A DNA stretch of 62,870 nt, the filler included, from Reclinomonas americana ATCC 50394 (lineage: Eukaryota): the NCBI GenBank assembly GCA_048213135.1. It is 4 parts of 2 records of this genome, joined end to end, with 100 filler letters (N's around TTAATTAATTAA, not from the genome) between each part and the next. Parts side by side here need not be neighbours in the genome. Positions count along the whole stretch, not along the records: positions 1 to 13,683 come from PS015208.1; positions 13,784 to 27,875 come from PS015208.1; positions 27,976 to 54,710 come from PS015208.1; positions 54,811 to 62,870 come from PS015209.1. One strand, 5' to 3'. Position 1 is the stretch's first letter; each line of letters starts with the position of its first letter. This document shows, one piece after another, positions 210 to 58,932 of this stretch. The position numbers and the translations under genes are program-made. The notes beneath the pieces were generated by a model. That model made no database searches, had not been told where the DNA came from, and worked only from the letters and a program-made list of their open reading frames with translations.

Positions 210-3006
210 ATGACCGAGTGCTCCACGCGGCTGAGCCGATGGCGACGAGCCTTGTATCGCGTGCTGCGTGAATCACCACCTCTGCCGCCAGAGAACGAGT
301 TTGATCGACTTGCGCAGCTGCGTCAGCGGCGCCACGAGGCCGAGGATTTCGAGGACGAGGACTCGGATGCGGTGATCAACAAGAGGAGGCGACGCGAGGT
401 GGAGGACGACGAGGATGATGAGGAGGAGTCGAGTCGCATCGATGGCGTCTCGGGGTGGTGTCTGCGATGGCTGGCGCGCTTGGTCGCGCTGACGCAGTTC
501 GCGTTCATCACGCTGGCTGTGGTGCAGGCGCTGCAGGCGTCGATGGGTCCGCCGCTGACTGTCGCCGATGTGTTGGCCTATGGTGTGTTATCACTGCTCA
601 CACTATGGCGTGTGGCTCGTTCACTGATAACACACGCGCGCAGAGCATTCGGGACTGGAGATTTCCGTCGTCACCGTGTTCTCCGTCGAGTACGTGTTGC
701 GCGCTCTGGTCTCCTTCAACAGGTGCCGCTTCTTCCTGTCGCCACTCAACCTTATCGACCTCGGTGCCATCCTGCCGTTCTACTTGAGCTTCCTGCTGCC
801 GGACCTCGGTGTGCTGCTCGAATCGATGCGCGTTCTCCGAGTGCTTCGCGTGGTGCGTCTGCTGGCCAACGCCGGTCTTGGCCTCGGCCGCCAGGCACGC
901 AACGTGACGCGCGTCGTGCGGCGAGCCACCCCCGGCATCATTGTCGGCGTCTTCTTCTTCGTGGTCCTCTGTCTCATCAGCTCGGCGCTGATGTGGACTG
1001 TGGAGCGCGGAACGTACGAGTTGCGAGCTGTGTTTGTGCACAACAGAGGGGGCCAAGGGTTGAAAGCACGGCACGCTCACTCTTGCGTCCACTGTCGATC
1101 GAGCAGAACAAGCGTCCACGCGTGGGTCAGTTGTCTGCCGTGGGAGCCTACCAAGTGCAGCAAGTCACTGTTCTCATCGATTCCGGCCGCGATCTGGTGG
1201 TGCCTCGCCACCATTATGACGGTCGGCTACGGTGACATTTATGCACTGTCCTACGCTGGTCGAGTTGCGTCTTTTCATTCTCCAGATGGTCTTCGATTGT
1301 TTGTGCACCCCGACTGACACAACCGGCGTTGCAGGCTTTGACAGGAGTCATTGTGTTGGCGGGTATCCTCTCGATTGCGTTGCCGGTGGCCACAGTGTCA
1401 TCACACTTTGTCACGGTCACACAGCAAGTGGCCCGAGTTGCGTGTGCACGTGACGACACTCTGTGCTTTTTGGGGGAGTGGAAAAACTTATCTTTCGATT
1501 TCTTCGGCGGAGTGCAGGATCGAGCGCGCAAGCACGCCGAGGCAGTTCGGCGGGCTCGTGAGGAGGCCACCTGCGACGAGCATACGAGCGAAGTGATGAG
1601 TGGTCTGTCGCCAGTGTCGACATCGTCCATGTCGAGCATGTCACTGGGAGGCATTGGCGATCGCATGAGTTCGCACGCCGTCATGCCACGCTCACCAGTG
1701 GCTGCCGCGACGGTGCTGCCAGCCGACATGCTCGTGCTCACTCCACTGTCTGCCCATCAGTCGACGCCGGCAGCTTTCGCGATGCAAGACTCGCCCCTGG
1801 CCTCTGTGGCGTCAGCGATGACAGCCAAGTCGACAGCATCCGCAGCAGGAGAAGCTGCACAGCCGCCACCACCAACACCGCCGCCACCTGCACGGACGTA
1901 CAGCCCAGCCGAGTACTTTCTGCGAGAGTTGAACCAAGCCACGCTGGACGAGGTCTCCGCCATGCCCAAGCCCGTCAGACGACACACTCCTGCAGAGTAC
2001 CACGAGGCAGAGGTTGCGCGCGAGGCGGCGGCGAATGAGCCGCGTCCACCGCTGCGTCACTGGCTGACTCGGCGCTCGCTGCCGATGCACATGAAACCGG
2101 CGCTGGTTCGTCGACACACGGTGGCCGCCATTGACCGCATGCTCGGACAGCTGCAGCAGCGGCGACCTAGTGACCTGCAGGATCAGGGCCCTCTGGGTGT
2201 GGTTTGGGACAATGGTCCACACATTGTGCCACTGTATGGTGCTGAGGCGCACGATGACGACAGCGACGGTGACGACGAGTCGGAGAGCGACGGCGAGAGG
2301 CGCGTGGAGGATTTTGTGGCGCACGACAGTGTGTTTGCTGCCGACATTGACGAGTCACCGCTGGTGGATGTGGACGAGCGGGCCGGTCTGGTTGGCCGGG
2401 CAGAGTCTGTAAACGAGCCGCCGCCGCCGCGACGACTGTCGCGTGCGTCAACGCGGGAACGAATCCGGGCGATTTTCGTGGCCGACAGCGCCATGGCGAC
2501 AGACGACGAATTCCGCCACATTGACGTGGCTGTGGTTCACCACGCAGGTACTGAAGCACATCTGTAACTGTTGTTTGCGAGAGTGACGCACAAAACACTA
2601 ATCACTTCTTTCTTTTCCATCCTGCGCAGGTCCTGCGTCGTACTCGCACAACACGCTGCAGGTGCGCGGCTCGACCACCGCCGCCGAGTTGGCACGTCGG
2701 TTTGCCGTGCAACAGTTTTGCGATATCAATGGTTTCGAAATCCCCCACGCCGCGACAGTTCTCGATCTGTTGCGCGCCACTGTGGACGACGAAGGCTTCT
2801 GTGAATCGCCAGTGGTGTTGGTGGTTCCGGAAGAGCGTCGACCAATGACAGTCAAGAGCGTGTACAACGAGGCGCTGAACGAATCCCTTACTTCCTCGTC
2901 GGAGTCGGAGTCGGCGTCGGCGTCGTCACCAACCAGCAGCGACGACGAGCGCGACAATGAGGGAGACGATAAGCGAGTAGACGCAAGGCAGTCGTCGACA
3001 CCGTGA
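210..3006 (+). CDS. Voltage-gated potassium channel (6TM Kv-like), spliced; long low-complexity C-terminus
   Basis: S2 EYVLR, S3 PLNLIDLGAILPFYL, S4 RVLRVLRVVRLL, pore SIPAAIWWCLATIMTVGYGD, S6 ILSIALPVA. Inferred introns 583-643, 1020-1106, 1264-1334, 1437-1517 and about 2548-2629 join the frames. Stop TGA at 3006. Confidence 0.9.
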
Positions 3007-3111
3007 AACATAAACGAAAACAATTTTGATTGCAAAACTTACTACTTACTTACTGCTTGCTGCTCTCTCTCTCTCTCTCTGTCGCACTGTGTTCAACTGT
3101 ACATAAATCTG

Positions 3112-6100: not shown

Positions 6101-9100
6101 TGTATGACACATCGTCGTCTGTTCGCCGCGTCTCCGACGACACCGACATGGGCCGTGTGCGATCGCTGGACTGACCGTCACGGTGTCGACGCGAGTCGGA
6201 AACGGAGCTTGCTGACCGCCTGTGTTCCCGCTCTCGGTGATCTCGATCACGACGATGCCGACTGGAGCTGCCGTCGTCATACGATTCCGGTGATGCCATG
6301 AACGACCGCTCGTGCTGTGCTGACAACGACGACGACGAAGACCGATGGTGGTGTCCTCGTGAACGCGACGAGTCGACAGAGCGCTGGCGACGATGCTCTC
6401 CGTCGTCATTGGCGTCGCCGGTGTCGCCATGCCGATGACGATGTGAGGAGGACGACGAGCGGCGAGCGTGCCGTTCGCTAGTCGGTGGTGACACGTGCGA
6501 ACGAGTGTGTCGCGACGCCGAATCGTCGTCGGCGCGCGATCGACTCGACCGCGAGCCCCTCCGCTCGGCAATCTCATCCGCCGTCAGCGATGCCGGAATG
6601 CGCTGCGCAGACGGTGGTGGCACATCACGACTTGAAAAGTAGCCGCTCTCGTGTCGCGACGACCGTGTGGACGGAGAGGGCGCTGCGGGATGCGACTGCA
6701 GTGGTGGCGGTGGTGCCGGTGGTGGTGAGGTCGCCGACAACACAGGTAGCGCTGGCGGGTGCCTGTCGCCCACAGACAGCGAGCGCCGGCGACTGCTTCG
6801 ACTGTGTTCACTCTTGCGCGACGGCGACTCGGTGTCTCTGCGCGACGACGGTGATTTGCGCGACTCGGGCGCCGGAGATTCGACTCGTCGAGAGCTCCGT
6901 CTGCAGAGCGAAAGTGAGTACGCACTCTGTCATGTATGGCCAAGGCACAGTACTCGCCTCTCTGACGGCGGCGCTGGTGAGGCCACGTCGGCCGGAGTAT
7001 TTCGTCGACTGGCCGACATGGGGGGTTGCGCTGCGACAGCAGGCGAGGACATTGCCGAGGGAGGACCAGCGGTGGCCGGATGTGGTGACGGTGGACCATG
7101 CGACCACACCGAAGGTGCAGACAAGTAACGCGACGCTGGCGTCAGAAACGGAGTCGCAATAGCCGATGACCGCGAAAAACCGGGCGTGTGTGGCGAGGCG
7201 GTGGCCGAGAATGTTGGCCGGCTGCCATCACCGGGTTCGGGTGTGTGCCACGGTACCACCGTGCATGCCTGCAAATCTGCCACCGAGGAAGCAACGGTGT
7301 TTGAGAGTGACACACTCGCCAGTCAAGGATGCACTGTGTGGAGTGGAGATACATACCTTGAGCAGCGCGGCGCAGCGAGTCATCGAGGCGTGCCATGTCC
7401 ACGTCGCCAGAGTTTCCTGTACGGGGGCGGCCGAGTGAGTTGGCAGTGAAAAACGCATGCTGACTCGCTCCGCGAAATGTGTACCTGCTGCTGCGCGGAC
7501 GCGACTAAACGCGTCCAGCGCCGCATCGAGGTCCTCCTGTGCGTGCAGCACAAGGTCGCGCTGCTCTAGGTACTTGGACTTGAGTTGCCTGCAGCTCGCA
7601 CTGTCAGAAGGCTGTTGTGCGTCCTCGCGCGCTGCATGTCAACGCAACTCGTAAAGACGGCTCATTTCGGCTTGCTCCGTCTTGTAGCGCTGCGTGTGGT
7701 CAGCCAGAACATCCTGAAGCTTCACGATTTGCTCCTTCTTTGCAATGTAGCGGTACTTGAGCTCCCTGCACGTGCGCAGAGTCAGATCGAAAGACATGAA
7801 AAAATGTTGGGGTGGATGCCGCTGGCCGTCACAGCACGAAACTCGTACTTGCGCTGCGTGTCGAGATGATCGCGCGACGGTCGCTCCTGGCGCAGCGGGG
7901 CAGGCGGAACGAATGGACGCTCGCGGCTGCGCTTCAACTCCTCCAACAGGCGACGATTCTCCTCCTCCAGACGCTGAACCGTGGAATGCATCTCGCTTTG
8001 TCTGCGCGTCGCAGGTGGTGAGCAGGTGGTTTCTTGCTAGAAGAGCGTGAAGTGCATGGACGCAACAGTAGGCGACTCCGAGTGCTCTCCAGCTGCGAAC
8101 GCGGGAGGGGGGGGAGGTGAGCAACACTTGATTAAGGTCTCCTGGTTGAAGTCCGCAAAGAGGCACGCACCGCTTGCTGCACCTCACGGAGCTGCGCGGT
8201 GACTGCTGCGTGCTCCGTTCGCAACTGCTCGTACCGCTCCGACAGCAACTGCTTTTCGATTTCGACCTCCTTCCGACGGCCGTGCTCAGTGACCTCCGCC
8301 AGACGCACGTGCAGGAGACGCAATTCCTGCTCGAGAGTCGAGACCTTGGCATTGGAGACCTCCAGTGCGTCGGACTGTGGCGGTGGTGGCGAGGGCGGTG
8401 GAGACGCGTCGTCGTCGCCGAGTGCATCCACCTCCTCGGCGATCGACCGCTCGAGACGATCGACAAACTGCGACTGCATGCGCTCGAGAACTTGTCCGTG
8501 GGGAACGCCAGTCAGCGGCGATCGCAGGTTTCGGTAGCGCTGCGAAAGCAGACTGGATACTACCGACGCAGAGGTGCTCTTCTGTGGGCTCAAACCATTC
8601 GCCATGCCGTTCTGCGACTTGCGTCTGCTGGGTCCAGTTGCAGAGAATGACGACGCCGACGACGACTGCAGGTGTGAAGTAGGCTTTTGGGTAGTGCGCG
8701 AGGCCTTGACGGCATCGGTGGCGGCAGAAATGGCAAAATCCTGAGTCGCCGCCAACTGGTCCGACACAGCCATGCACACGGCCTCCAGCTCCCTGGAGAA
8801 GCAAGCCATTTAATTACAGGTAGGAAGCCAGTCGAAGAGCGCGGTGCATCACGCAACTTGTACTTGCCAAGCAACTCACGGTGCTCTCCCTCCACCTGCT
8901 TGCGTTCGTTCTGCGGGTTGAAAAAGTGAGCTGCCTGCACAGAAGAAGAAAAAAGAGAGGGGGTGGAACGCACTTGCAGCATGTTAAAGTCACTCTCCAG
9001 TGTGCGATACTCGAGTGTCAGCTGCCTGACGATCGAGTCGTGATACTCGCGAGTCACAACACTACTCAGCAACCCCGACGATGACGACTGCGAGACAGTG

Positions 9101-10322
9101 GGTGTGTCAGGCGTGAGAGAACAGACTTATGGATGAGCCTCGCACTCTCGAATCACACCTGCGACTCGGACAGCGTCTGAGGCGGAGGAGGCGGTGGTGG
9201 TGGTGGTGGTGGTGGAGGAGGAGATGGATGGGAGGGCGCAGGAGCAAAAATGGTGCTGGTGCTGAGATGGGTGTCAACGGCGTCGAGCACGTGCTTGAGT
9301 TTCCGCGTCCTCGCGGTGATGAGCTCGGTGCACGACAAAAATCGCGAGTCCTGTTGCGGTCGAGCACTGTGTGAGGCAGCGAAAGGGAAAAGAAGAGTTG
9401 CGCACACACGCAACATCAATGGCGTCCTCGTCGATGAGGAAAGAGTGTCGAGGAGACAAGGCGCGCAGTGGCAAATCATCCTCGCCAATCACCACGTCGC
9501 CAGTGAGCCGGCCCAGGGCTGTGCACGTGGCCAACAGGAGCTCATCCCGCTGCCGCAGACGCACGCGCAACGCGGCACACTCATGCTGCGCATGATCACG
9601 CGCTCGCTCCAACTGCCGAAGGTACGCCTCCATGTCGCCACTCAGCCCCGACCCCGATCGTCGCGGTGACACCTCATAAAATGGTGGCGGCTGTCCATCG
9701 TCTGCCGACTGCATCGACTGTCTTCGCCGCCCGTACGGCTCCTCGTTCGGTGGCGGCGATAGCGGCGGCGATGGTGGCGGTGACATGAGCGACGACGAGC
9801 TCACGTCGAGTCCACTGCTCAACATCGACGACGACAAGCCCGGCGGTGGTGGTCCGCGCGTAGCACCACCACCGCCAACACCACCATTGAAGAAGAGGCG
9901 TGATGATGAGGATGCCGATCCACGCAGAGGCTTGCTCGCCGACACCTCCGCAGGCTGCGCTCGACTCCGGCTGTGTGCCGAGATCGCCACCGACGACGGT
10001 GACAGCAGCGGTGCGGTCGCTCGCAACGATGCTGCCGATCGCTCGGGGTACTACGACCCCCCAGAACACATGAGTGAATGTTGTTTCTCATGAATCGGTA
10101 CACACACAGAGACACACATACCTCGCGTCGTTCACCAAGCGTCGATGATCGATGTGCGTGTCTGTGCTGGTTCATCAGCTGGCGATGAAGAGAGAGAAAC
10201 CAAAACTGACTCACCGATTCCAGTCGCTGCCACGAGACAGCATCGATGGCGATTGCGATGGTGGAGGAGGCTGGTGCTGGTGCTGGTGAGATGGGAGAGG
10301 AGTCTGCGCAGACGACGACCAT
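3112..10322 (-). CDS. Large multi-exon hypothetical protein: N-terminal coiled coils, then Ser/Arg/His-rich low complexity (may be more than one gene)
   Basis: Coiled-coil exons (LEQELRLLHVRLAE, EQIVKLQDVL, LYEQLKSKYLEQ) are linked by GT-AG introns such as 9351-9414, 8793-8857 and 7589-7648. Long open frames at 5160-6773, 4302-5144 and 3688-4356. No recognisable family. Confidence 0.5.
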
Positions 10323-11108: not shown

Positions 11109-13402
11109 ATGATCTCCGTGGAGAAGTTCCTCAGCGATGTCAGCAAGCGCCGCCAGCCATCGGCCATTCGCGCGCTGATGCCGCTCGTCAAGCTGCCTGG
11201 TACACTCGCACGCACACGCACACACACGCACACGCCATGTCACACACTCTCACACTCACACTCTACTCTCACAGGCATGTTGTCACTGGGCGGTGGCCTT
11301 CCCAACCCGGAGACCTTCCCCATCGCTGGTCTGACCATCACTCTCAAACCGGAGTGCGTTCCGAGTGGAGGTGCCACACAAGTGGAGGTGGCTCCGGAGC
11401 ACGTGCGCGATGCATTGCAGTACTTTCCCACAGAGGGCTTCCCTCCGCTCGTCAAGTGGCTGCGAGAGGACTACATTCCCGAGTTCCACGGTCGAGGCGC
11501 TGGTCAACCACTATCCAAGGGTGTGTGTGTCTCTCTCTCTTGGTGGAAGATGCACACATTCTCCTCAAACTGTGTGTCAGAGTTTGGTATCTGTGTGACG
11601 ACGGGATCGCAGGATGCACTGACGATGAGCTTCAGCATGCTGCTGAATGAGCGTGACAGTCTGCTGGTGGAGGATCGTTGCGTTGCTCTCTCACCACCGC
11701 ATTTGCCGCCGAGTGTTGTTGTTGTTGTTGACGTGTGCGAGAGCGCAGCGCTGTACTCGGGCTCGCTCTCCTACCTGCGACCACTGAATGCACATCTGGT
11801 GGGTGTGCCGACCGATGCCGATGGACTGGTGCCGGAGGAGCTGGAGCGTATCTTGGCGAACTTTGAGGAGCTGTACCCGGGCGAGCGATTCCCGAAGGCG
11901 CTGTACTTGGTGCCGACGGGCAGCAATCCCTCTGGCGGCACGCTGTCGCGTGAGCGGCGGCAGCGCGTGGTTGACCTGGCCAAGCAGTTTGATATTCTAA
12001 TTCTGGAGGACGATCCCTACTTCCACCTGCAGCTCGACACGAACAGCGAGTTGCGTCGATGCGCTGGAACGGGAGCGGCGAAGCTGCCACTCGTAATCAC
12101 GAATGTGTGTGCAGATCGGAGCCACTTCCCAGCTTGTTCTCGTTNNNNNNNNNNNNNNNNNNNNNNNNNNNNNNNNNNNNNNNNNNNNNNNNNNNNNNNN
12201 NNNNNNNNNNNNNNNNNNNNNNNNNNNNNNNNNNNNNNNNNNNNNNNNNNNNNNNNNNNNNNNNNNNNNNNNNNNNNNNNNNNNNNNNNNNNNNNNNNNN
12301 NNNNNNNNNNNNNNNNNNNNNNNNNNNNNNNNNNNNNNNNNNNNNNNNNNNNNNNNNNNNNNNNNNNNNNNNNNNNNNNNNNNNNNNNNNNNNNNNNNNN
12401 NNNNNNNNNNNNNNNNNNNNNNNNNNNNNNNNNNNNNNNNNNNNNNNNNNNNNNNNNNNNNNNNNNNNNNNNNNNNNNNNNNNNNNNNNNNNNNNNNNNN
12501 NNNNNNNNNNNNNNNNNNNNNNNNNNNNNNNNNNNNNNNNNNNNNNNNNNNNNNNNNNNNNNNNNNNNNNNNNNNNNNNNNNNNNNNNNNNNNNNNNNNN
12601 NNNNNNNNNNNNNNNNNNNNNNNNNNNNNNNNNNNNNNNNNNNNNNNNNNNNNNNNNNNNNNNNNNNNNNNNNNNNNNNNNNNNNNNNNNNNNNNNNNNN
12701 NNNNNNNNNNNNNNNNNNNNNNNNNNNNNNNNNNNNNNNNNNNNNNNNNNNNNNNNNNNNNNNNNNNNNNNNNNNNNNNNNNNNNNNNNNNNNGGACACG
12801 GAGGGTCGAGTGTTGCGCTTCGACTCACTCAGCAAGGTGCTGTCGGCCGGCATGCGCATCGGCTGGGTCACCGGTCATCCGACACTGATCGAGCGCATCA
12901 ACTTGCACTACCAAAGCTCGTCGCTGCATGCGTCCGGCGTCAGCCAGGCCGTGGCAGTGACCCTGTTCCAAGCGTGGGGCATTGCCGGTTTGCGTGAGCA
13001 CGTGGCCCGTGTGCAGGCGTTCTACAGGGCGCGACGTGATGCGTTCCTGGCGGCCGCCGAGCGACAGCTGACGGGCCTGGCCGAATGGGCCCCACCACGT
13101 GCCGGCATGTTCGGTCCGTGTGCGCGCCTGTGTATCGCCCCTTCCCACTCTCACGTGCACTCCCCCCTGCAGTGTGGCTCCGTCTGCTGGGAGTGGAGGA
13201 CTCGCGCGAGGTGATCCGCACACATGCACGCGAAAAGAAGGTTCTGCTGGTGCCAGGGCAGGAGTTTTCGGCATCGGATCGCAAGGGCCCGTTCGTGCGT
13301 GCCTCGTTCTCGCTGCTTGACGCGTCGCTCTTCGATACCGCGCTCGAGCGATTGGCCGAGGTGATTCGCGAGGCCGGCTCTGCCGCCAGTGGATCGTCGT
13401 GA
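11109..13402 (+). CDS. Class I/II PLP aminotransferase, kynurenine/2-aminoadipate aminotransferase (AADAT/KAT2/ARO8)-like
   Basis: Motifs SLGGGLPNP, VTTGSQDAL, EDPLYSG, YLVPTGSNPSG, ILEDDPYF, and the PLP-lysine motif DSLSKVLSAGMRIG. Contains the N-gap 12144-12793. Confidence 0.9.
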
Positions 13403-13727
13403 ACGATGATATGCAGGAGAGTGCGTGAGTGTTGTGTGAAGCTGACAATGGAGAATACCTCCGGCCCGAGACTCTGTTTGGGCAGCGAGCGATGTGGTGG
13501 TCGAATGCTCCGTGGGCAAGCGAAGAAGTGTGCATTTTCGTTCAATTCGTATCGAAAGGGTGACGAGAGAGCGCGCGATCATCGCTTTGGACACACACAA
13601 GTCGCCACGCCAACGCGCGCGCGCTCTCTTCTCTCGCTCTCTCACACACGCACACGCACGCACGTGCTGCTCTCTTGCTCTCTNNNNNNNNNNNNNNNNN
13701 NNNNNNNNNNNNNNNNNNNNNNNNNNN

Positions 13728-13739
13728 TTAATTAATTAA
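13728..13739. other. Artificial scaffold linker TTAATTAATTAA (stops in all frames) inside an N-run
   Basis: Identical 12-mer flanked by about 44 Ns; also at 27920 and 54755. Confidence 0.9.
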
Positions 13740-13783
13740 NNNNNNNNNNNNNNNNNNNNNNNNNNNNNNNNNNNNNNNNNNNN

Positions 13784-14858
13784 TCTCCTCATCATCATCA
13801 TCATCGTCGTCGTCATCGTCGCCATCATCGTCCTGCTGCCCAGCATCCTTATCATCATCACCGTCGTCGTCGTCTTCGCGTGCCACAATCGGTCCCTCGT
13901 TGGCCTCCTCGTCCTCCGCGAATCGCGTAACAACAGAGTCGCGCCAGCCGCTTCGCAGCGTCAGCTTGAACATTCCCATCTTCTTGCCCATCAGCTTCAG
14001 AATGCGGCACTGGCGCGGCGTAAGCTCCTCGCCCTCCGTGCACACCGTGTACGCCCTCTCCAGCAGCACGACACCTGTGGATCGCCATTGTGTCAGCACC
14101 AAGCGTGAGCAACAACAGAGAGAGAGATGGTACAGACCATCGCGTAGCGTCACTGGCATCTCGAGCTTCTCTCGCAGGTAGGGCTCCATGGGTCCGGAGC
14201 ACCAGCGATGACCCGTGTGCGCACCGAGCTCGCCCTGCGGTATCGTCACCGTCTCCGAGGCCACATCGCCACCGACTGCAAACTCGGGCACGCCAAACTC
14301 CTCAAAGAAGTTGACCACCGCCTCCTCTGGCTCATTGGTGAACAGCAGCCCGGAGGTGCCTGAGCCCTTCAGCGACAGTGCGATCTCGTGCAGCTTCTCA
14401 CGGTACTCGTTCTCGGGAGTGCGGCCAAGACCCACCGCCATCAGTGTGTTCTTGCCCAGAATGAACCTGAGAAGAGAGTCAGCATGCCAACAAAGGGGGA
14501 GATGAGAGGAGGCGGTGAGAAACGCAACTTGCTTCCGCCCCACGTCAGTCGCACCTCCTTCATGAGCTCCGTGCGAAAGTTGCTGTAGGAGAAGTGATAG
14601 ACGGCCTCGTACGCGTCCATCGCCTCACGAACCATATCAATGATGCGCTTCTTGTTCTCGCGGTTGCCTCCGACCGTGGCCTCTGCGTTGAGGGAGAGGG
14701 CGCGCGCGTGTGTGAGTCGCTCGTGCACATTCACATGCACAGACTCCACCAACAAAAAAAAGAACATGCTGCAGTGCTCTGCGCGTTCTTCTGCGCGTGT
14801 GTGACACACACAAAGGCAGAGACGCACCGGGCTTACGTGCGCGTCTGGAGCGTGGCAT
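13784..14858 (-). CDS. MRT4: Ribosome assembly factor Mrt4 (mRNA turnover 4); 3' end lost in gap
   Basis: MPRSRRAR start, spliced SKFILGKNTLMAVGLGRTPENEY, GLLFTN, MEPYLREKLEMP, YTVCTEGEELTPRQCRILKL, and an acidic tail. Confidence 0.9.
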
Positions 14859-27875: not shown

Positions 27876-27919
27876 NNNNNNNNNNNNNNNNNNNNNNNNN
27901 NNNNNNNNNNNNNNNNNNN

Positions 27920-27931
27920 TTAATTAATTAA
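27920..27931. other. Artificial scaffold linker TTAATTAATTAA
   Basis: Same 12-mer within an N-run. Confidence 0.9.
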
Positions 27932-41700: not shown

Positions 41701-44326
41701 ATGGTTCTTGTCGCTTGTAACCCACAGCGTATTATTGATGATGTACGTCTAGACCTTTCTTCTTCTCGTACCGTTGATTGATTACTGTGCTCACTGGTGC
41801 ATTACAGCTGCTGGACTTTACGAAATCCGAGACCGGCCGTCTGACCCGCGAGGACCGCGAATTCAATCTCATGCTGCTCGTGCGCAACACACTGCGCATG
41901 TTTGTCAAGCAGGCCAAAAGTGCGCACGTCGAATTGCACTACCGCTGGTATGCGACGAATCCGCCACGTCTGGACCGAGTGTTGCTCGGACCAGACGCAA
42001 GTGATGAGGCGTGTCTGGAAGTGGCCACGTACAGAGCTGGTTCGCCGCTGTCCACTGGATCATCGCCGCTACAGGTGCACGAGCGAGTGGCTGGAGCCAA
42101 GGTCGCACACAATCAACGCTGGTCCGACTTCGAGACGTTGGACACGTCGTCATCAGCAATGATGCTTGTGGGCAAACTCGAATCCGCACCACACAGCCCG
42201 TCGTCGTCGACCACCTCCACCCTGAGCCACGCCGTTGCTGGTTCCCAGCCGGTGGAGCGCAGAAGCTGCTTGAGGGGCGGCAGCGCACAGTGCCGCCACT
42301 TGTCACTGTCCAGCTCGATGGGTAATCACGACACTGACGACTGTAGTGTCGAGGTCGAGCACGGACGGGCAACCGGCGAGCATCACTCGTCCGGATCCCC
42401 CCTGTCAACACGGTCGGGGATGCACTCACCGGTCGTGTCACCACCGACACCAGTGCCCCTGCATGCGGAACAACAGCCGCAGCTGCAATCGTCCGATCGT
42501 CCGTCACGGCGACCGAGTCTGGCAGCCGTCCATACGCCCGAGCTGTACCTGCCGCCAGCAGTGGTTCGGTCGGATCCGCATCGGCTGCGCCAGGTGGGGG
42601 GAACATGTCTTCGCTGACTGTGCGTAGCGATGCGATGCCTGATGTGCTGTTAACGATTAACACAGGTGTTGCTCAACCTCGTCGACAATGCCGTCAAGTA
42701 CGCGCGCAACTGGGTGCGCGTAGATGTTTGGAACTGTATGAGTGATGGGCCTGACGGCGACACACCGGCGGGCTCTTCGGCACACGTGCGCTTTGACATT
42801 GTGGACGACGGGCCGGGTATTCGCGAAGAGGTATGTTGGCAGTGCAAGTGATTCGTCCTCCTTTTGCTGACACTGGCGTGTACACAGCACTTGAGCGTCA
42901 TCTTTGAGCCTTTCATTCAAGTACGTCTCCACTTCTACTGGTCGAATACTTGTTGGCAAGTGAGCTGATGTGACATGCTTCGTGCAGATTGGCGAACACA
43001 TTTCGGCGTACAACCAGTCGGTGGTCACGGGCACTGGCCTCGGACTCCCGATTTGCGAATCGGTGCGTTTCGCCGCTGTGAGTGTGCACTGACGCAGTTA
43101 CATACTCATTTATCTTCGCGGATCGTAGATTATTCGACTGCTCGGCGGCAGCATCTCGGTCGCCAGTTCAGTTGGTGTCGGATCCGTGTTCTCCGTAGAG
43201 GTTCCGGTGGATGTGGTATCGTGGAGCTCCGACTTGGTTTGCTACTTGTTGTCCATCCCTTACGGCGACACAGTTGTTAATCATCTGTCACACTGTGACT
43301 TGCAGTGCCTCCGGCGGTTCAGCTTGGATCACAACTCACCGTTCCTGGACATGGGCATTGTCACTCCGCCCACCTCACCAAGACCAAGTACACTCGCGCC
43401 AGCGGCGCCATTGTCTCCTGCCACATCGCCCAGGGAATCGGCACCCGCTGCTTCGGCCATTGTGCATCATCCCACATGGACAGCGGTGGAGGCAACTGCT
43501 GGCAGCTCGAACGCACCTCTTGCAGCCTCGACGACGCCAGAAGCAGTCCCGGAAGCAGACGACTCACCATTGCCACGACGGAGACCCGTTCGCGTCTTGT
43601 TTGCCGAGGACAACAATGTTGCGTGCACCGAGAGTGAATCTAGACTCTACTGCGTCGACAAAGCTGTGTGTCCTTATCGGTGTGCTATGTGCAGGTGAAT
43701 AGGCGAATTGTACAGTGCATGCTGAGCAAACTTGAGAGACTACCGCCATGCGATGTCACCACTGTGGCGAATGGCAAGGAAGCCGTCATGGCGTTTGCGT
43801 GCTCAGCCTGCAATCCCTACGATATTGTACTGATGGATTGCATGATGCCGGTGATGGTGTGTGTGTGCGCGCGCGTTCGCTGTGCATCTGTGCTCTATCT
43901 GCCTTGGTTCTCACCGTCAAGTCTTGTATCTGTGGCAGAATGGTTACGAGGCTACGAGGAGAATTCGTGTCGTCGAGGAACAGTGCGGCCTACCCAGTTA
44001 CGGCTTGATTCAGCGTTGCATGATTGCACTCCTTTTTTCTGACCTTGTGTCGTTCTATCTCGTACAGGGACGCCGATAGTTGCAGTGACTGCAAGTGCGC
44101 AGCCGGAACAGATCGAGTACTGCATTGCTTGTGGGATGGACCATGTGCTCACCAAGGTACTACTGTGCACTGTTGACACTGCTTCGTCATGTGTCAACAC
44201 TGACACTGGCTTCTGCTCTCTCTCCTCTGCCAGCCGTTCAAGCGAGAGGATTTCAACAAGGTGGTGACGAAGTGGGTCGTGGAGCGCGAGGTATTAGCAG
44301 ATACAAAACACCACGAGGTCGGATGA
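38728..44326 (+). CDS. Hybrid sensor histidine kinase (GAF-HisKA-HATPase_c-REC)
   Basis: GAF EFRNLNSLFG...GLPPGHPPL. Spliced H-box SHEMRTPMH, N-box RLRQVLLNLVDNAVKY, DDGPGI, IFEPFIQ, GTGLGLPIC. REC AEDNNVN, IVLMDCMMP, VTASA, LTKPF. Confidence 0.93.
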
Positions 44327-44365
44327 GCGAGCTCGTGTGTGGATGGAGGACGCGATGTAAATATA

Positions 44366-45848
44366 TTAGAAATACACATTTTGAAAGAAAACTAATGTGA
44401 CTCCGCCCACCACAGCGAAGAAGACAAGGATGCACAACAGCAGATTGTAAAAGAGATTGAGCACGACAATTCTGCGTGGAATCGGTGCCTGCCACAGGGC
44501 CACTGTTTCATCGATGAGACCGGCAAAGGAGCTCTCGCTGCCACAGAAATCAGAGATGAACCTGCGTCGCCGTGTGTCAGGCAATGAAACACCACTGATA
44601 ACTGGGTCGCCAGACCGCCACGCAACAGTTGGAGGAACAGGACGAGGTACGGGTCGTTGCCGTTGGGAAACGACTGACGCAGCAGCAGCAGGTCGTGTGC
44701 AATGCCTATGAGAATGCACGAGACCATGTTGACACGAAATGTTCCCCACTGCACAGAGTGCCTGTTCTTGATGCCGTAGTTGCCAATGATGCTACGAGAG
44801 TGCGAAGGTGAATTATGTGCAGCTGTGTGCATTGCGATGGGAACGACCAAAGTGCACGTACCCGCCACTGATGGCACCAGACACTGACAGGAACACCGAC
44901 GTCCAGAACGTGTAGATTCTAAAATCGTACTGCACACTCGGTCCACCGAACACGCCCGAGCCTGCGTAATAGTTTGCCGGTACGTATGGTGCATGCACGC
45001 TTATTCTGTGCATGCAGCGGTGGAGAGCATTAGCTTCCTGTTGATTGACAATGGGTGTTGTTTGAAAAAACGTAACATGACTGCAATGATGGCGCTGAAG
45101 CACACCGCCAGCACAATCAGGTGGCTTGAACCACACCACAACGACTGATTGCTGATGCTCTGCGACAGTGGGTTAGCAAAGTGGCATTCTTCCATCAGGA
45201 GGGTTGTTGACACCGACGTCGACGCAACGCGCTGGAGGCTCTGCAGGTACAGCTCGTCGGCCTCGACCACACTCTTCGTGTTCTTGCCGAGTCGAATCAG
45301 TGCCCGTGAGGTGTCGCTGCGCTGCAGATTGAACATGGAGATGGAGGAACCGAGTGGCGACAGACGCTCTCCACGGCCTTCATCGTCCACGTCAAGACCA
45401 CCCGTTGGGTCCTCCTGCAGCTCAGGAGATGTGGGTGCATGACATACTTGAAGAATCACCACCACCACCACCACCACCACCACTCACCCGCACGGCCTCG
45501 CGAGTCAGCGAAAACTGCATGTGTGCGTCGTCGTTGAGGTGGACTCGCTTCGAGAGACCGGCAAACGGCTTCCAGATGGAACCGACCCAGCGACCTGCGT
45601 GGTGAGTAGTAAGACGGCGAAGCTGCGTGGCAGTTGTCACACGAACACGACGAACCGAGTGCATTCGCCGCAAAGGCCACAATCAGTGTGGCGACAATGT
45701 TGATCAGCGTGCGCACGTAGCCGTACGTAAAGTTGATGAGCGTGTCGGTCTCCTGGATAAAGTTGCCAAACGAGGTCCACACACTGCAATAGCCGCCCTT
45801 GATGGCATTGTAACTGTGCGACTCCGGGTCAGCAATGGGGGGCCACAT
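44366..45848 (-). CDS. FEX/CrcB (Fluc)-like fluoride exporter with two domains; 5' end lost at gap
   Basis: Two degenerate Fluc TM3 motifs (KGGYCSVWTSFGNF and SDFCGSESSFAGL), TM2-like WGTFRVNMVSCILIG, and multiple hydrophobic helices. Confidence 0.6.
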
Positions 45849-45868
45849 NNNNNNNNNNNNNNNNNNNN

Positions 45869-47637: not shown

Positions 47638-50082
47638 TTATTGCGGGAGCTCTTCGCCACTGAAAGTCGACGCCGCGGGTATGACATGTGGCGTCGGCGT
47701 GGGGGTTGGCGTGCTGCCCGGCACACCACTGGCAGACGCACTGGACCGCCGTCGCACGGGCACGACGGCAGCTTGCAGCTGCGCCACCAGCGAGTCAAAG
47801 GCCTTTTGCTGGTCGCCTTCGGCAGGCGGCCTCTTCTCGCGGCATCGTCGCATGTACTCCTCCAGCCGGTCGGCGGGATACGAGGATGCGACGTGACACA
47901 ACATGGTGAGCAGCGGTTCCAGCACATTGGCGTAGTCGTCGATTTTGCGCAAGAAGAACTCCTCAATCACCAGCCGCGCCGTTTCACACCATTCCTGCAC
48001 AAATAAGCGCACGCCTGTTGTTGAATACGACACCCCGATTGTTGTCTGCGTGCGGACAGGAGTGTGCGCACCTTGTGCCACAACTTCCACAGCAACTTGT
48101 CGTAAAAGTGCGTGTGGACCATGGTCGAGCTGTCGAGCGTGAGCAGACTCGGCAACACCTCGCGCAACCGCTCCACATCGTCGGCTTCCACCCAGTGCAA
48201 CGCGTGCTCCAGATAGATCTACGCACCCACAGAAAGCACAACGGTCAAAGAACGATAAATCGAGACACACAGCTGCGCTACACAGACCAGCGCCGCCACT
48301 GGGTCCGAGGCCGCCAGGCTCGGGAGGTCGGGATCCAGCGGTGGACAATCGCCCTCTTGCTCTCGCATTTTGTCGTCCACCAGCACGCCGACCAGTGCCG
48401 GCAGGAACTTGTGCACAATGTTGGCGTTGATCTCGACGAAGCGACCGCTGCCCTCCTTGATGAGGCTGAGGGCCCGCGTGGCAAGTGTCAGCAGTCGACA
48501 CAAGAACAGGAGCACCTTGTCGTGCTGTGTTTTTGGTGAACAAGCGCGACACGCGCGAGTTAGAGTGCTCAATGAAGAGGACGGGGATAATAGGGGAGAG
48601 CGGTCGCAACTCGCGGCAACTTCTGCTGCTCGATCAGTCGCTGCAGCAGCTCGTAGATGTTGCCGACGGCGACGTCAAGAACATACGGCGTGGCCATGAT
48701 CATGCCAATGTCGCCCCACCAAATACCTCCGTCGGCTGTACGCCGGCGCAGCAGTGAATTCACGCAGCTCACTGAGTGTCATGAAATATACGCACGCACC
48801 ACCCTCCAGAGGCGCCAGGAACTCGGTGAGATCCGTCACGCGCTTCTGATCCATTAGCCACACACGCTGCCAGCCGTCGAGGCCCCACGCAAACTTGTAA
48901 CACTTGTCGGATTCGAGAATCTGGCGCCAGATGAGCACGGGGTGGACCAGCACACACACACACACACACACGAATGAACGCACGCACCTCTTTCCGATTC
49001 TCGTCGTGAAACGCCATTAGCAACTCGTAGCGCAGCGTGCAAAAAGCACTCTGCGTGAAGCGCACGTACAGGCCACGCACAAACGTGCGAATGTACTCGT
49101 ACAGGCGAGTGGAGGTGCCGACCATTTCAACCAGCGTGCGCAACACGTCGTTCTCCTGACGACGTAACCGCGGATCCTCCACTTTCTCCGCCGTCATCTT
49201 GCTCTCGTGCTCCAAGTACCGGTGAAAGAGTGGAAAACTGGTGCACACAACAGAGCGACGTGGGGTACATGCGAGAAGACAAGGTAGGTACTCAACTACA
49301 AAACGCAACACTTCCTGTCGAAAGCGATCCTTGTCGTTCTCCCAGATGCGACGCTTGACCTCAATCGGCAGCGCAGCCGGCAACGACTGCGTGTCTCCCC
49401 TCTCTGATCAGACACTCTCACAACGATCTCACGACAACAGCAGTCGGCGCGAGACGCACCGGCACGGCTTGACCTCGTTCGTCGGTCACCAGTCTCTTCA
49501 GCACGTGCTCCTCGATGCGATCCAACTTCAGCAGAATGGAGATGGGAATCACTCGCAGCTCTTCGTGCGACAGGAAACACAGAGTGCGTTCCAACAGCGG
49601 CAGCAGTCTGCACTCGGCGTGGTGAGGAAGCATCGAAGACACTCTCTCTCGTTGATTGACAAGCACACTCAACTTTTCCTGGTCGCAGCTGCGAATGCCG
49701 TCTTCCACCAGTGCGCGCAGATGCACAAAGAGTCCCTTGTAGATGTCAGAGCCTGGCACCTCCAGCAGCTCCGACAACTCCAGCGCATGCGTGGCAGAAG
49801 GCAGTACTCAATGCACACACGCAATGCATGAGATAAAAACACACACACACATGCAAGGCAAAGGGGGTCGCAAAGCATATCTTTGAGACCGCGTGTCTGC
49901 TGGAAGGTGGGCACAGCCTTCTTCGGGTCGCGTTCCAGCGACTGCCGCAACTCTCGCCTCTCACGCGCCAAATCAAACAAGTCGCCACTCTGCTCCATTC
50001 CTCCTCCTCCACTGCCACTGCCACTCGCGCCTGCAGCAGAGGAGGACGAGGAGGATGACAAGGCCTCACTGGCAGCGCTCAT
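47638..50082 (-). CDS. NELFB: Negative elongation factor B (COBRA1)-like
   Basis: LPIEVKRRIW, spliced FRQEVFPLFHRY, PRLRRQ, LVEMVGTSTRLY, FCTLRYELLMAFHD, DKCYKFAWGLD, GDIGMIMATP, KLPR. These match remembered NELF-B motifs in order. Confidence 0.8.
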
Positions 50083-50365: not shown

Positions 50366-50810
50366 TTGCTGCACTGCTGGCACAGAGTCAGGCACTGAGT
50401 GGCCAGTTGCAGCAAGCAGCAGCAGAGCGTGAGCGCGAGGAGGCTGCGCGACAGGAACGTTGCGTGCATTGTTTCTCACCTCAAGATTGCAATGAGTGAG
50501 TCTGACTGTGAGGCGCGCAGTGGTGCAGCTGGAGCAGGAACGAGAGGTGCTGGAGCGGCGAGTACGAGCGTTGCGGGAGTCGAGACGGAGGGCACGAAAG
50601 CGTGCGGCCGATGCGCAGATGACAGAGGCGGAGGTGGTTGATGTCGATGGGAGGAGAGACAAGCGATGGTTGGTGACGGAGAAGCGCGTTCGTGCCAGTG
50701 TGCTGCCGCTGTTGACGGGTCGGACGGTGGTACTGTCGCCTACGCAAGAGATCGCCACGTTGGTGGGAGGCAGTGGAAAGCGGCAGCGCAGGCGAAAGGT
50801 GCGGTTTGGC
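50366..50810 (+). CDS. Coiled-coil protein fragment between gaps
   Basis: EREREEAARQE|LVQLEQEREVLERRVRALRE joined by intron 50459-50520; ends KVRFG at the gap. Confidence 0.5.
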
Positions 50811-50832
50811 NNNNNNNNNNNNNNNNNNNNNN

Positions 50833-52554: not shown

Positions 52555-55434
52555 TCAGCTGCCGAGTAGTGACTCGCCGAGCAGATTCACCTTGATGATC
52601 TCGTTCGGCAGGTACTCGCCCGTGTTGCTGCACGGAGGTGACATGTGAGTTTCAGGCATTGCGAGGGCGGAGAGAAACCAAGCACGAAACTAGGCAATCA
52701 GTGCCGCAAAGTGGAAGGGTCTGTGTGGATCGCCGCGCAGCGATTGCACATCTGCAGTGCGCGGAGTGAGCAGAGAGCACAGCGAGCGGTATGTCGGACG
52801 TGGTAAACGGACGAAACAGAGATCGCCAGTATTCTGGCGGCCCTCCATGTGCACTTCGGCCAGCATTTTACCGGTGCGACTGCACATGACACGCACCGCG
52901 TCCTCCAGGCATGAGCCGCTGATGATATAATCGCTGCCATTCATGTAGTACGAGCGCGTGTAGTTTCGGGGACTGCCGGTCTGCACAATTGGATACCTGC
53001 GTGACGTGGTGGAGTGAGCACACAAAACACAATCCGGCAGTCGGCATCCGCACGCCAACGCACCGCATATGGAACTCGCCGTCCAGTGTGTACTGTCGCA
53101 CCTCGTTGTCGACCGCAGAGCTGAGGACATACTTGTCGTCCGAAGAGAAACACACCATCACGCAGCCCTGCTCGGACTGGCGCGTGAAGATGGGCTGCAG
53201 GGACAATCAAACACGTCAGCCCCCATCCCCACAGTGTCGACGATGGAAAAGAGGAAGTGGAAACAATGCGACGCAACTTCTTTCGGCGCACGCAAATCCC
53301 ACAACTTGATGGTCTTGTCGAAGCTGCTAGTGGCAAACAGGTGTGGCGACGTATTACTGAACTTCAACACATTCACATGCTCCGTGTGGACATCTCGCAG
53401 CGTTGTCACAATGGTGCCATTGCGCAAGTCGTAGAGAGACACATTGCGCGAATAGCCACCTATTGCGACAGCAGCATCAACAACCGCTGCCCAACTTCAA
53501 CAAGGACGCCGCGTGTCACTGCCGACGCAACTCGTGAGGAACAGATCGTCGGTGCAGTTGACATTGACTGATGTTAGTCGCTGGAACGGCGGATACTCGT
53601 ACACCAGCGGATTCTTGCCGTCTATCAGCACACGTCGCAACTGAGTACTTGCGTCCACACATTCTCACACACAAACAAAAGGACACTGGTTTCCGCACCT
53701 TGCAGATAGTTAATGTCCATCAAACACACAGCGCCGTCGGAAGCGCCGGCGACAAACTTGGTCGGCTCGTGTCGCATCCACGAAATACCCAAGAAACTGC
53801 CACGCATGCGGCCGCTGTAAACACGCACATGTTCAAGTGAGTGAGGTGGGCACTCAGCGACATCACTGACGAAGAAGAAGAAGAAGAGACGGAGAGGGTG
53901 GCGACGCACGTCATGGCAATGGTGCCGAGACACGAGCCCGTCATGTGGTTCACCAGCACGAGTTCGCCCGGCAGCGTGCCATAGATAAGCAAATCTGGCA
54001 CGGTCGGGTGATACTCAAACTGGCGCGGGTACGTGACGTGCGTCGTCTGGTCCGCATGGCTCAGCAGAGGCTTCTGTAGCGACGAAGAAATACGACAGGC
54101 TGTGGCCTCCTGCTGCAGCGCACTCTCACACGAGAAACTGCCAACAAGACGGCCTACAAGTGGTGGCAGTCCAGCGCCAGCAGCATTGACAGCGGCCGCT
54201 GCCGCTGCTGCGACTGGTGACTGTGACAACGCACTGCTCTCGCCAGAGGATGCAGCTGACGAAGGGGTGTCTGTGCGGCGAGACGGGCTCGCGGCTAACA
54301 GCCTCTTTGTGGCGACACACTCGGGAGAGAAACGCGACATGCGCAGGTCGAGGCGGAACTTGGCTCCGTGGCCTCCATACAGGCCCATTTCTCGTTGCAT
54401 GATGATTCTGCACGACACATTCAGTGCACGGATGAATTCATGCCGTTGACGGGAGCAACACACACCGAGTCATTCGAACACCCGGTGCGCACTCGTAGGC
54501 AGCACGCTCGAACTTTTCAGCAGCCACACGAATCGCGCGCTCACGAGCACGCTGCCAGATAAACACACACGTGAGGCCAAGCACACACTCCGCGGAAGCA
54601 AGGCAGACGAAAAAGGATCGACGCACCGGCTTGATGGCATACCCGTTGAGGATGTGCAACTGCGGCAGCTGTGCAACCAGGAATTCGCGATAGTAGCCCT
54701 CGGTGCAGACNNNNNNNNNNNNNNNNNNNNNNNNNNNNNNNNNNNNNNNNNNNNTTAATTAATTAANNNNNNNNNNNNNNNNNNNNNNNNNNNNNNNNNN
54801 NNNNNNNNNNGTAACGACACGACGGGGGCCGCACGCAACTCACGGTCAAACTCCAACGACGGTTCAACCTGTGGGTGAGGACTGCCCAGCTCGTCTACCA
54901 CTGCATTCAGACACGCAATGTCCACCTCGCCCGTCGGAGGCACCGTCCACACCACTGCAATCAGTAGTGAGAGAACGCTATAGGAGTCACATGGCACGTA
55001 CATGTTGCACACCAGCGGCCTCCTGTCAATCACATTAGAAACCACACATCTCATGCACACATATGCAAACCGATGTGCACGCACCGGGAACAGGTGATGC
55101 CAGTCGACACTACGAGCACGACCGCGCACCAACAAAAGCAGCTGTCGCCGGTGCATCAACCACGCGATTTGCGTCTTTCCCACCGCGTCTGGCTCCCGAA
55201 ACCGCTGCTCCACGAACGGCAGAAGCCGCTCCGCAGCCACACCCTCCGCGCCTTCCACACTGACCAGCCCGACGCCCTCAATGAACTGCCTCTCACCACT
55301 GAGTCACGAATGCATGTGGCCTTCTGCATGAACACACGCGCGCGAACCTCATAGAACACCAAATTGCAGTCGCCGCGGCCTGCGCGCACGTCCTCCGCCG
55401 CCTGTCGATCTTCCTCACTCACGAACGATGCCAT
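52555..55434 (-). CDS. LRRcap + WD40 protein, DHU1 (DWD hypersensitive to UV-B 1)-like
   Basis: YREFLVAQLPQLHILNG, PRQFEYHP, YGTLPGELVLVNH, FLGISW, ATSSFDKTIKLWDLR, NYTRSYYMNGSDYIISGSC, VQSLRGDP, EIIKVNL. Confidence 0.75.
54755..54766. other. Artificial scaffold linker TTAATTAATTAA
   Basis: Same 12-mer within an N-run. Confidence 0.9.
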
Positions 55435-55503
55435 GCAGCGAAAGAAACACGACAAGTTGTGCCGGGAACTGACAGCTTCCAAGTTATTGTCTTTGAGTGC
55501 GCC

Positions 55504-58500: not shown

Positions 58501-58932
58501 ATTGAGAAAGCAGGTGTGTTTTCGTGCCATCCTCCTCCTTTGCCATATATATCCAGATCTGCTCGACTCACTATCCCCCCCTCACGTATGTTTGTGACTG
58601 GCAGACGGCTGCGATCACCTCGTTTGCGAAAACCCGGCTTGTCGGCGAAGTGATGGGACTGCGTTTGAATTGTTGCGCCGTCTCTTCTTCCAGTGTCTTG
58701 CTGTGTCTGGTGGCGATCTTTGTAACTTTGTTTTTTACCGTGCAGTTGCTGGATTTGCTTTGTGGACCGTCGTTTGGTGATGGACAACGACAACTCATAT
58801 CACCGGGACGGTTGCCCATATAAAAACCCAGGCGACGCCATGGACCCCGCCGAACTGCAGCGGATTGCGGACGGCGGAGAAGCCCTCCCTCCCGATCCTG
58901 GTCCAGCCGGGCCTCCGCCTCCTCCGGAATGA
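55504..58932 (+). CDS. RBR E3 ubiquitin ligase: coiled coil + three RING1-like repeats + IBR + RING2
   Basis: Three C-x2-C...CxH-x4-C-x2-C...C-x2-C units. IBR (CLRPGC...CRSC...C...WHRGLTC). RING2 TKPCPLCQAPIEKADGCDHLVC...FEFCWIC. Confidence 0.88.
57270..57345 (+). repeat. Intronic 12-bp polypyrimidine tandem repeat (CCTTCCCCTTCT)n
   Basis: About six direct copies just upstream of an acceptor. Confidence 0.85.

Follow-up and report, generated by a model that had tools for sequence, protein, structure and literature searches.

A frequent class of atypical 5′ splice sites, reading GTTGCG, was found in a 62,870-base window of the Reclinomonas americana ATCC 50394 genome (assembly GCA_048213135.1), the window being the whole stretch of DNA analysed here. 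It includes 5,565 N, and the rest, with a G+C content of about 59%, is eukaryotic sequence with many short introns; all figures below rest on 57 kb joined from four contigs, and the counts hold for this window. Judged from the sequence, the GTTGCG sites were confirmed as a real, precisely placed and frequent class of predicted donors, and they probably head ordinary U2-type GT-AG introns whose 5′ splice site is recognised with an offset of one base. A first-pass annotation had placed such donors on at least 22 introns, listing 22, and had described the class as a normal donor shifted by +1. The hexamer was present on the assigned strand at all 22 positions (22/22), and the introns that it heads were short (58–141 nt), of the GT-AG kind and provided with CTSAY branch-like motifs, 19 of the 22 being recovered by our own gene finder. 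Homology pinned exactly four of these sites (1264, 11677, 14528 and 48610), and homology or a motif that was not residue-exact supported another seven (1020, 12050, 43618, 49309, 53277, 53531 and 58672), while frame and coding only supported the other eleven (1437, 7648, 8857, 9414, 32932, 33162, 33299, 36513, 36670, 40294 and 50459).

The frequency of GTTGCG as a donor was assessed with and without a donor model. Altogether, 84 copies of the hexamer occur on both strands of the window, against 55–67 expected under Markov models of order 2–4, and this modest excess is about equal to the number of donors. A donor-blind screen was applied, accepting any GT with a YTRAY motif 8–48 nt before a YAG and no AG between, provided that the frame stayed open for 20 codons or more on both flanks and that both scored positively as coding. 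In all, 115 distinct GT sites went through, and among them GTTGCG came first with 12 (12 of its 84 copies, Fisher P = 2.6e−9), compared to 6 of the 115 copies of GTGCGT and to 2/80 and 2/82 copies of the decoys GTCGAC and GTGCAG, respectively. Genes were then modelled by a dynamic-programming (DP) gene finder that combines a Markov coding model of period three, trained on the window itself, with a heuristic acceptor score, and that is restricted to GT-AG introns, other terminal dinucleotides being outside its scope. Run without a donor model, it predicted 91 introns, with GTTGCG as the top hexamer (14 introns, 15%) and GTGCGT next (5); a weak dependence remains in this run, as its coding model was trained on the gene models of the run described next. 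Only 0.97 GTTGCG donors were expected among the 91 (P = 3e−12). Moreover, 21 of these introns combined T at +3, G at +6 and T at +7, and 39 had G at +5 without T at +3.

The second run used a two-component donor model, spanning positions −3 to +9 and trained by expectation-maximisation (EM) on the gene finder's own output; it is self-reinforcing and over-predicts in places, and was taken as a catalogue, not as truth. It gave 140 introns, with 24 GTTGCG donors (17%), 16 GTGCGT, 11 GTGTGT and 8 GTGAGT. Five of the 24, all on the minus strand, were additions to the first list (8066, 31867, 32452, 33559 and 35122). Together with the sister forms GTTTCGT and GTTGAGT, the class accounted for about a quarter of introns. 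Thus, the sizeable minority that the first-pass annotation had described was upheld, but as something more than a fringe, since GTTGCG looks like the commonest single donor hexamer in the window. Intron removal was needed for the reading frame at 14 of the 19 reproduced sites. The three claimed sites outside the DP models (33299, 50459 and 58672) gave open, sensible frames when spliced by hand.

Alignments to homologs place five of the predicted junctions to the base, with the cut before GTT (14528, 11677, 1264, 48610 and 35122). Exactness was judged either from both flanking open reading frames (ORFs) matching one target or from spliced models scored locally against hidden Markov models (HMMs) of homologs. 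At 14528, in the MRT4 gene, the upstream ORF matches yeast Mrt4 to ...WAGSK and the downstream ORF matches the same chain from K-LIMGK, so that the spliced product WGGS[K]FILGKN aligns without gaps to yeast WAGSKLIMGK (chain 60–69), human MRTO4 being in agreement. At 11677, in the aminoadipate/kynurenine aminotransferase gene (AADAT), the alignment to the human enzyme stops at ...LLVED (chain 139) and restarts at LYSGSL (chain 141), the query having 25 residues in the interval, and excision of 72 nt leaves one codon, C/CG (the slash marking the cut here and below), which encodes Pro and faces the single chain residue 140, which we take to be Pro in human AADAT. The voltage-gated K+ channel spliced at 1020 and 1264 scored 183.3 bits against an HMM built from 30 homologs, gapless from the pore through S6, and moving the 1264 donor by 3 nt reduced the score to 177.1 bits (downstream) or 174.5 bits (upstream). 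With 1020 left unspliced, the score was 178.9 bits and the model carried a 47-residue insertion in the S5-pore linker; the Kv2.1 alignment breaks at this same intron (query 126/180 vs. chain 352/358). A PDB search with the short S6 ORF of the channel returned no matches.

Two further genes were informative in this respect. In NELF-B (COBRA1), the exons on either side of the 48610 intron meet at positions 227 and 228 of Pfam COBRA1, which hold the last residue of the one and the first of the other, respectively. At 49309 in the same gene, the spliced product EVFPLFHRYLE was identical to human EVSPLLKQYIL at 5 of 11 residues, compared to 3 of 11 for the read-through. The spliced GH47 mannosidase model scored 713 bits against an HMM made from 60 of 67 homologs of 430–720 residues, themselves drawn from 150 fetched, with only small gaps in the catalytic domain and none at junctions. 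In that domain, shifting any of the 8 donors by 3 or 6 nt either way lowered the score; the losses were 3.8–8.1 bits for the 35122 donor moved by −6, −3, +3 or +6 nt, and 8.4–16.9 bits for the GTTTCG donor at 34549 moved by 3 or 6 nt either way. In the PDB, the GH47 exon that precedes 35122 matched by chance only, and the WD40 exon matched generic repeats and no orthologue, hence 53277 and 53531 were not pinned. Overall, of the conserved motifs that had been invoked to fix junctions, those of AADAT (11677) and MRT4 (14528) proved exact, while the receiver (REC), RING2, WD40 and NELF-B EVFPLF motifs gave support that was not residue-exact.

The donor profile indicates that the whole site is displaced by one base. 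The EM model split the donors into two types, CGA/GTTGCGTG (weight 0.30) and (G)AG/GTGCGT(G) (weight 0.70). For the comparison of profiles, 'normal' donors were defined by G at +5 and a base other than T at +3 (77/140) and contrasted with the 24 GTTGCG donors; the remaining 39, comprising 22 further ones with T at +3 and 17 others, were kept out of it. As the shift by +1 implies, positions +3 to +8 of the class copied positions +2 to +7 of the normal donors, and the exon positions were displaced as well: the class (C)GA/GTTGCGT(G), aligned one base on, reads GAG-T-TGCGT against the normal GAG-G-TGCGT, the cut falling one base earlier. On the intron side (+4 to +10), the Kullback–Leibler (KL) divergence between the two profiles dropped from 13.03 without a shift to 1.21 with a shift of one, although part of this difference follows from how the hexamer is defined. 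On the exon side (−4 to −1), it was 0.20 when the class was shifted by one, compared to 2.57 without a shift, 0.96 with a shift of two and 5.12 with a shift of minus one; these positions lie outside the hexamer, and the shift by one is thus supported independently. In particular, position −1 of the class (A12 C3 G0 T9) resembled normal position −2 (A29 C18 G2 T28), and position −2 of the class (A7 C3 G10 T4) resembled the G-rich normal position −3 (A16 C19 G29 T13).

Since the donor model had seen positions −3 to +9, the count of G at −1 was repeated on the 22 sites of the first list. It was 0/22 there and 0/27 in the union of claimed and added sites, compared to 60/77 normal donors and 10/57 GTTGCG copies that are not donors. 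T at +7 was found in 17/22 donors and in 15/57 non-donor copies (P = 7e−5). Furthermore, the base that matches normal +4 was C in 29 of the 31 GTTGCG, GTTTCG and GTTGAG donors, 24 of them fixed by definition, whereas normal donors had C in 33/77, T in 27/77 and G in 1/77 at this position; G at normal −2 was found in only 2/77. Among the sister donors of the EM run, GTTTCGT (n = 5) corresponds to a displaced GTTCGT and GTTGAGT (n = 2) to a displaced GTGAGT, most of them with A or T at −1. The class was closer to the optimum than the normal donors at every remaining position, as is usually seen where the loss of a contact is compensated.

In the mechanism proposed, an early reader (the U1 small nuclear ribonucleoprotein, or an equivalent) would bind both donor classes alike, tolerating one mismatch, and the catalytic spliceosome would cut at the sole GU present, one base upstream of its usual place in that register. 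The lost pair would be compensated by a better fit elsewhere, and the near-invariant GCGT of the class might be read in this way because, with one pair lost, the remaining positions must fit better. Both the partner that pairs with the site and the order of these steps are what we infer. With the canonical 5′ end of the U1 small nuclear RNA (snRNA), the nearest-neighbour energies predicted for the class consensus were −0.8 kcal/mol in the shifted register, +1.4 in the bulged one and −0.3 in the canonical one, the shifted register being the least bad of the three. Free duplex folding with the same canonical U1 gave −9.0 kcal/mol for the normal consensus and −1.8 for that of the class, and means of −5.8 over the 77 normal sites and −1.3 over the 24 class sites, with no consistent register.

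Several points weigh against a site read one base out of step. The shifted helix reaches only −0.8 kcal/mol compared to −7.5 for the normal consensus with canonical U1, and being so weak it fails to explain, as simple U1 pairing, frequent working sites. An offset of one base would likewise confront U6, which has to read the intron once U1 has left. Moreover, as the donor model covered −3 to +9, the exon-side match could be partly self-reinforced, and the absence of G at −1 in 22 sites differs from the 10/57 of non-donor copies with a Fisher P of only 0.054. For 11/22 sites, the support comes wholly from frames and a weak coding model. Among the 19 sites that the gene finder reproduced, five (1020, 1437, 11677, 36513 and 49309) head introns that are in frame and stop-free, so that the frame stays open there whether or not an intron is assumed. 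Splicing of the GTTGCG introns is something that we infer from predicted junctions, and the class frequency would describe 57 kb of four stitched contigs, not the genome. A bolder form of the reading is held tentatively and considered doubtful: the reading site would be uncoupled from the cutting site as a routine, in about a quarter of introns, through a U1 or U6 changed to pair with G-C-G-U. Just as doubtful is its other part, a U1 that carries G opposite the consensus +4 C and so departs from the near-universal ACUUACCU.

A rival that overlaps with the preferred explanation without excluding it, and that was judged unlikely, is a changed U1 (or U6) snRNA, either with a 5′ end different from ACUUACCU, for instance with G opposite +4 C, or as a dedicated second U1 complementary to GUUGCGU. 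The normal consensus itself points in this direction, as its +4 C, with G so rare there, is mismatched with canonical U1; in the class, C at the equivalent position rises to near-invariance, as would be expected of a pairing base. In addition, a what-if U1 with G at position 5 is predicted to reach −14.9 kcal/mol with the normal consensus and −7.5 with the class, and folds unaided into the shifted register. However, the U1 5′ end is, to our knowledge, nearly invariant across eukaryotes, and a dedicated second U1 alone would leave unexplained the exon-side preferences, which copy those of the normal class one base off. In a bulged register, U1 would pair normally at −1, +1 and +2, one U of +2/+3 would bulge out and pairing would resume at +4. 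GUU sites are the textbook human case of such a bulge +2/+3 (treated in PMC4856993), and with two U's the shifted and bulged registers are hard to tell apart on the intron side. The exon side, however, seems to favour the shifted register, as a bulge would keep exon pairing and with it the −1 G, which the class has in 0/22 claimed and 0/27 union sites; a shift of one describes the exon profile much better than no shift, and the bulge has the worst predicted energy of the three registers. It was therefore regarded as improbable.

Miscalled boundaries or coding sequence taken for introns were held to be very improbable. The donor might in this case be a GC donor three bases on (GTT/GCGT), the cut might come after the G (TT...AGG), or the in-frame cases might be coding; the five in-frame, stop-free sites agree with this, as does a G after the acceptor in 12/24 introns, where sliding both ends by one base yields the same mRNA. 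However, the base after AG was not G in the other 12/24. The GC donor is contradicted at 1264, 35122, 14528 and 11677: placing the donor 3 nt downstream lowers the score by 6.2 bits for 1264 and by 3.8 bits for 35122, and it would put an extra residue into the gapless MRT4 alignments, and at 11677 only GT-AG gives the Pro codon, which a one-base slide loses. Read-through at 11677 and 1020 would moreover create insertions of 24 and 47 residues, respectively, that are absent from homologs. Least probable of all, and hardly to be believed, are introner-like mobile elements or U12-type introns that bring their own donor. An invariant donor of 7–8 nt repeated in many unrelated genes could indeed reflect a recent burst of intron gain, but an introner-like repeat family was rejected for lack of sequence similarity along the introns between copies: an all-against-all blastn of the 140 introns (E ≤ 0.01) found no GTTGCG-GTTGCG match and only chance matches of 13–17 nt, and length, G+C content and CTSAY motifs are as in the other introns. 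U12-type introns, which are marked by the donor box /RTATCCTT and by a branch site resembling TCCTTAAC, were rejected, as the donors here read GTTGCGT, unlike that box, and the branch-like motifs are CTSAY as elsewhere.

In well-studied eukaryotes, the +5 G is the most conserved donor base after GT, and rare mammalian GUUAAG-type donors are read by U1 in a +1 shifted register. The human example GUUAAGU relates to GUAAGU as GUUGCGU relates to GUGCGU here. The human sites of this kind are a handful, compared to about 15–25% of the predicted introns in the window. The Entamoeba donor GUUUGU, unusual but uniform, is similar in its U at +3 and different in that G at +5 and U at +6 stay in the normal register; GTTTGT donors of the window (n = 3 in the EM run) were counted as normal-register sites. 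The human shifted-register 5′ splice sites (Roca and Krainer 2009, as summarised in PMC4856993 and also listed in the references of PMC9311317) share with the present class the GU at the cut, the consensus match that appears only when the U1 pairs are moved by one, and the missing +5 G. They were proven with suppressor U1, whereas here the register is read from sequence, with the exon-side consensus displaced too. The human bulge +2/+3 register (Roca et al. 2012) comprises 68 sites (54 curated) of 201,541 5′ splice sites in Table 3 of Tan et al. 2016 (PMC4856993), and all curated noncanonical registers together make up 2.1% of human donors in the same table. As that source describes them, bulge +2/+3 sites are alike in the GUU start and in one extra nucleotide between the cut and the +5/+6-like GU; they differ in that no G was found at −1 here, which goes against a bulge with normal exon pairing.

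In fritillariid tunicates, according to the relevant passages of PMC13326754, the donor has drifted from U1 complementarity and a shifted U1 register was left open by the authors; most introns there abandon GT-AG, whereas here GT-AG is kept and the register alone appears to move. The relevant passages of a paper on fungal, animal and plant donors (PMC10599564) mention no register shift, and no description of a GTTGCG-type donor class was found in the open-access literature searched. The class would be a variant of the human shifted-register 5′ splice site, from which it differs in its frequency and in its exon-side displacement. A metagenome scan with a GH47 exon as query gave 80 loci, with a best identity of 55% over the full query and at most 60% over one segment. 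The density of GTTGCG was 0.40 per kb in these loci compared to 1.47 per kb in the window, and the eight copies examined, in 3 of the 80 loci, included none that was donor-like and two that were plainly coding. If the reading is true, this spliceosome would run many introns with a U1-type register and a cleavage site one base apart, and the lineage would be a natural experiment in which register and cleavage site are set by different spliceosome parts. In that case, the class may also be the trace of a wave of intron gain or donor turnover specific to the lineage. It yields a testable prediction on the organism's U1 5′ end and U6, and gene finders trained on one donor matrix would misplace or miss roughly a fifth of introns in the genome.

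All 27 GTTGCG introns, those of the first list and the five beyond it, start with GT and end with AG. Three lie in the K+ channel gene on the plus strand. The first is in the S5-pore linker (1020–1160; 141 nt, in frame, stop-free, from DP and homology), the second between the GYGD filter and S6 (1264–1334; 71 nt, pinned), and the third in the C-terminal part (1437–1517; 81 nt, in frame and stop-free, T-rich in its 3′ part, from DP only). On the minus strand, a coiled-coil gene has one at 7589–7648 (60 nt, with CTGAC and a read-through stop 3 codons in; DP), followed by one beyond the first list at 8002–8066 (65 nt), predicted by DP with the donor model and weakly supported, with a flanking exon of 26 nt, and by two whose removal the frame needs, at 8793–8857 (65 nt; DP) and 9351–9414 (64 nt; DP). 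In the aminotransferase gene on the plus strand, the pinned, in-frame intron at 11677–11748 (72 nt) is followed by another at 12050, placed by AADAT homology, which ends 3 residues before the donor; because an N gap begins at 12145, its acceptor is uncertain and lies at 12114 (65 nt) or 12132 (83 nt). The MRT4 intron (14467–14528, minus strand, 62 nt) is pinned.

Further introns of the class, all on the minus strand, lie between 31690 and 36670. Beyond the first list, the one at 31690–31867 (178 nt, DP only) is doubtful, as it adjoins tiny exons and an N gap, and removal of the one at 32392–32452 (61 nt, with CTGAT; DP) is needed for the frame. A coiled-coil gene contributes the intron at 32866–32932 (67 nt; DP), and the next one, at 33102–33162 (61 nt, with CTGAC), was found by both the donor-blind screen and DP. 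The intron at 33233–33299 (67 nt, phase 2), outside the DP models, was joined by hand to the exon ending at 33163 in an open frame, and that at 33502–33559 (58 nt), beyond the first list, came from the screen and DP. The GH47 gene has a pinned intron in its catalytic domain (35043–35122; 80 nt), also beyond the first list, and two in its N-terminal part, at 36424–36513 (90 nt, in frame, in low-complexity sequence; DP only) and at 36607–36670 (64 nt, with CTGAC, its removal being needed for the frame; DP). On the plus strand, the intron at 40294–40374 (81 nt; screen and DP) has an in-frame TAA as its third codon. A hybrid histidine kinase has one in its receiver domain (43618–43694; 77 nt), for which DP chose the acceptor 43715. 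With 43694 it yields FAEDNN/VNRRIV, next to a weak downstream Response_reg match, and presumably keeps the EDNxxN spacing of a receiver domain.

NELF-B, on the minus strand, has the intron at 48525–48610 (86 nt), pinned by Pfam coordinates, and that at 49238–49309 (72 nt, in frame), where homology is not exact. In the stretch between two N gaps, the plus-strand intron at 50459–50520 (62 nt, with CTGAC), outside the DP models, gave an open coiled-coil frame on hand splicing. A WD40 gene on the minus strand carries two, both from the screen and DP: 53195–53277 (83 nt), before which the exon ends in ...KLWDLRAPKE, and 53460–53531 (72 nt), whose spliced product LFLT[S]GYSRNVSLYD fits the WD40 repeat pattern FITGSYDRTCKLWD. 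The last, outside the DP models, is in the RING2 of an RBR E3 ligase (58672–58745, plus strand, 74 nt). Its splicing gives GCDHLVCENPACRRSDGTAFE[F]CWIC, RING2-like as ...GCDHLVC...AFE[F]CWIC, with IBR and IBR_2 matches upstream. As for the sister donors, the GTTTCGT of the GH47 catalytic domain (34485–34549, minus strand) is pinned by the HMM; the others (GTTTCGT or GTTGAGT) come from the EM run and lie at 7766–7842, 52628–52690, 52752–52817, 22326–22391 and 49608–49673 on the minus strand and at 16922–17029 on the plus strand. Many predicted introns are a multiple of three in length and stop-free, such as 1020–1160, 1437–1517, 11677–11748, 36424–36513 and 49238–49309; their retention would add residues without truncation, and the high G+C content may account for how many of them there are.

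The introns of the class are similar to the other introns in median length (72 vs. 71 nt) and G+C content (0.55 vs. 0.54). Among the 140 predicted introns, 105 had a YTNAY motif within the last 30 nt and 35 did not, a proportion that is partly built in, as the acceptor heuristic favours this motif. The branch-like motif CTSAY appeared as CTCAC in 27, CTGAC in 19, CTGAT in 16 and CTCAT in 13 introns, with a median of 18 nt from the branch-like A to the intron end. At the sites of the first list, a short stretch leads to the YAG, most with a CTGAC/CTCAC-like motif 15–25 nt before it. A first gene finder without an acceptor rule had given 42 introns, noisy and with no clear motif, and a comparison of hexamers upstream and downstream of CTRAC motifs had only 144 sites, too few to tell. 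The DP acceptor at 11635 is wrong by homology, and those at 12132 and 43715 are probably wrong too. A 31-exon DP 'gene' at 38728–45730 (plus strand) is surely several genes merged; the region includes an unknown ORF of 560 codons and the GAF/HATPase_c/receiver histidine kinase, and the model's tail at 44000–45700, with exons of 3–40 nt, is not credible.

Three identical 100-base blocks, N44-TTAATTAATTAA-N44, at 13684–13783, 27876–27975 and 54711–54810, look like artificial linkers with stops in six frames; on this account the window is four contigs joined, and neighbourhood across the linkers is not real. Rfam and tRNA scans of the window gave 0 matches each, and a Pfam scan of 150 raw ORFs from the first 18 kb gave few. 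The organism's own proteins were absent from every protein collection searched. Genes were named through Pfam and PDB searches with single ORFs, which identified the K+ channel, the aminoadipate/kynurenine aminotransferase, MRT4, a 3-beta-HSD-like enzyme, ribosomal protein uL16, the GH47 mannosidase, the hybrid histidine kinase, WD40 proteins, NELF-B (COBRA1) and the RBR E3 ligase. The best-named homologs of the GH47 protein were metagenomic or from Paratrimastix pyriformis (64% over part of the query). For the MRT4 exon, the protein-homolog search gave 1 match (33% identity). The MRT4 gene is truncated by the first linker, and has a second intron at 14075–14137 (minus strand, donor GTCTGT, 63 nt, in frame, stop-free), exposed by an insertion of about 19 residues relative to human MRTO4 in the PDB alignment. 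Finally, the uL16 (RPL10) gene at 29877–30707 (plus strand) has a 69-nt intron with the donor GTTTGT, splitting Pfam Ribosomal_L16 at 81/82; its best database match, an EST-derived (expressed sequence tag) protist protein, is 90% identical, and animal and fungal proteins are 84–87% identical.

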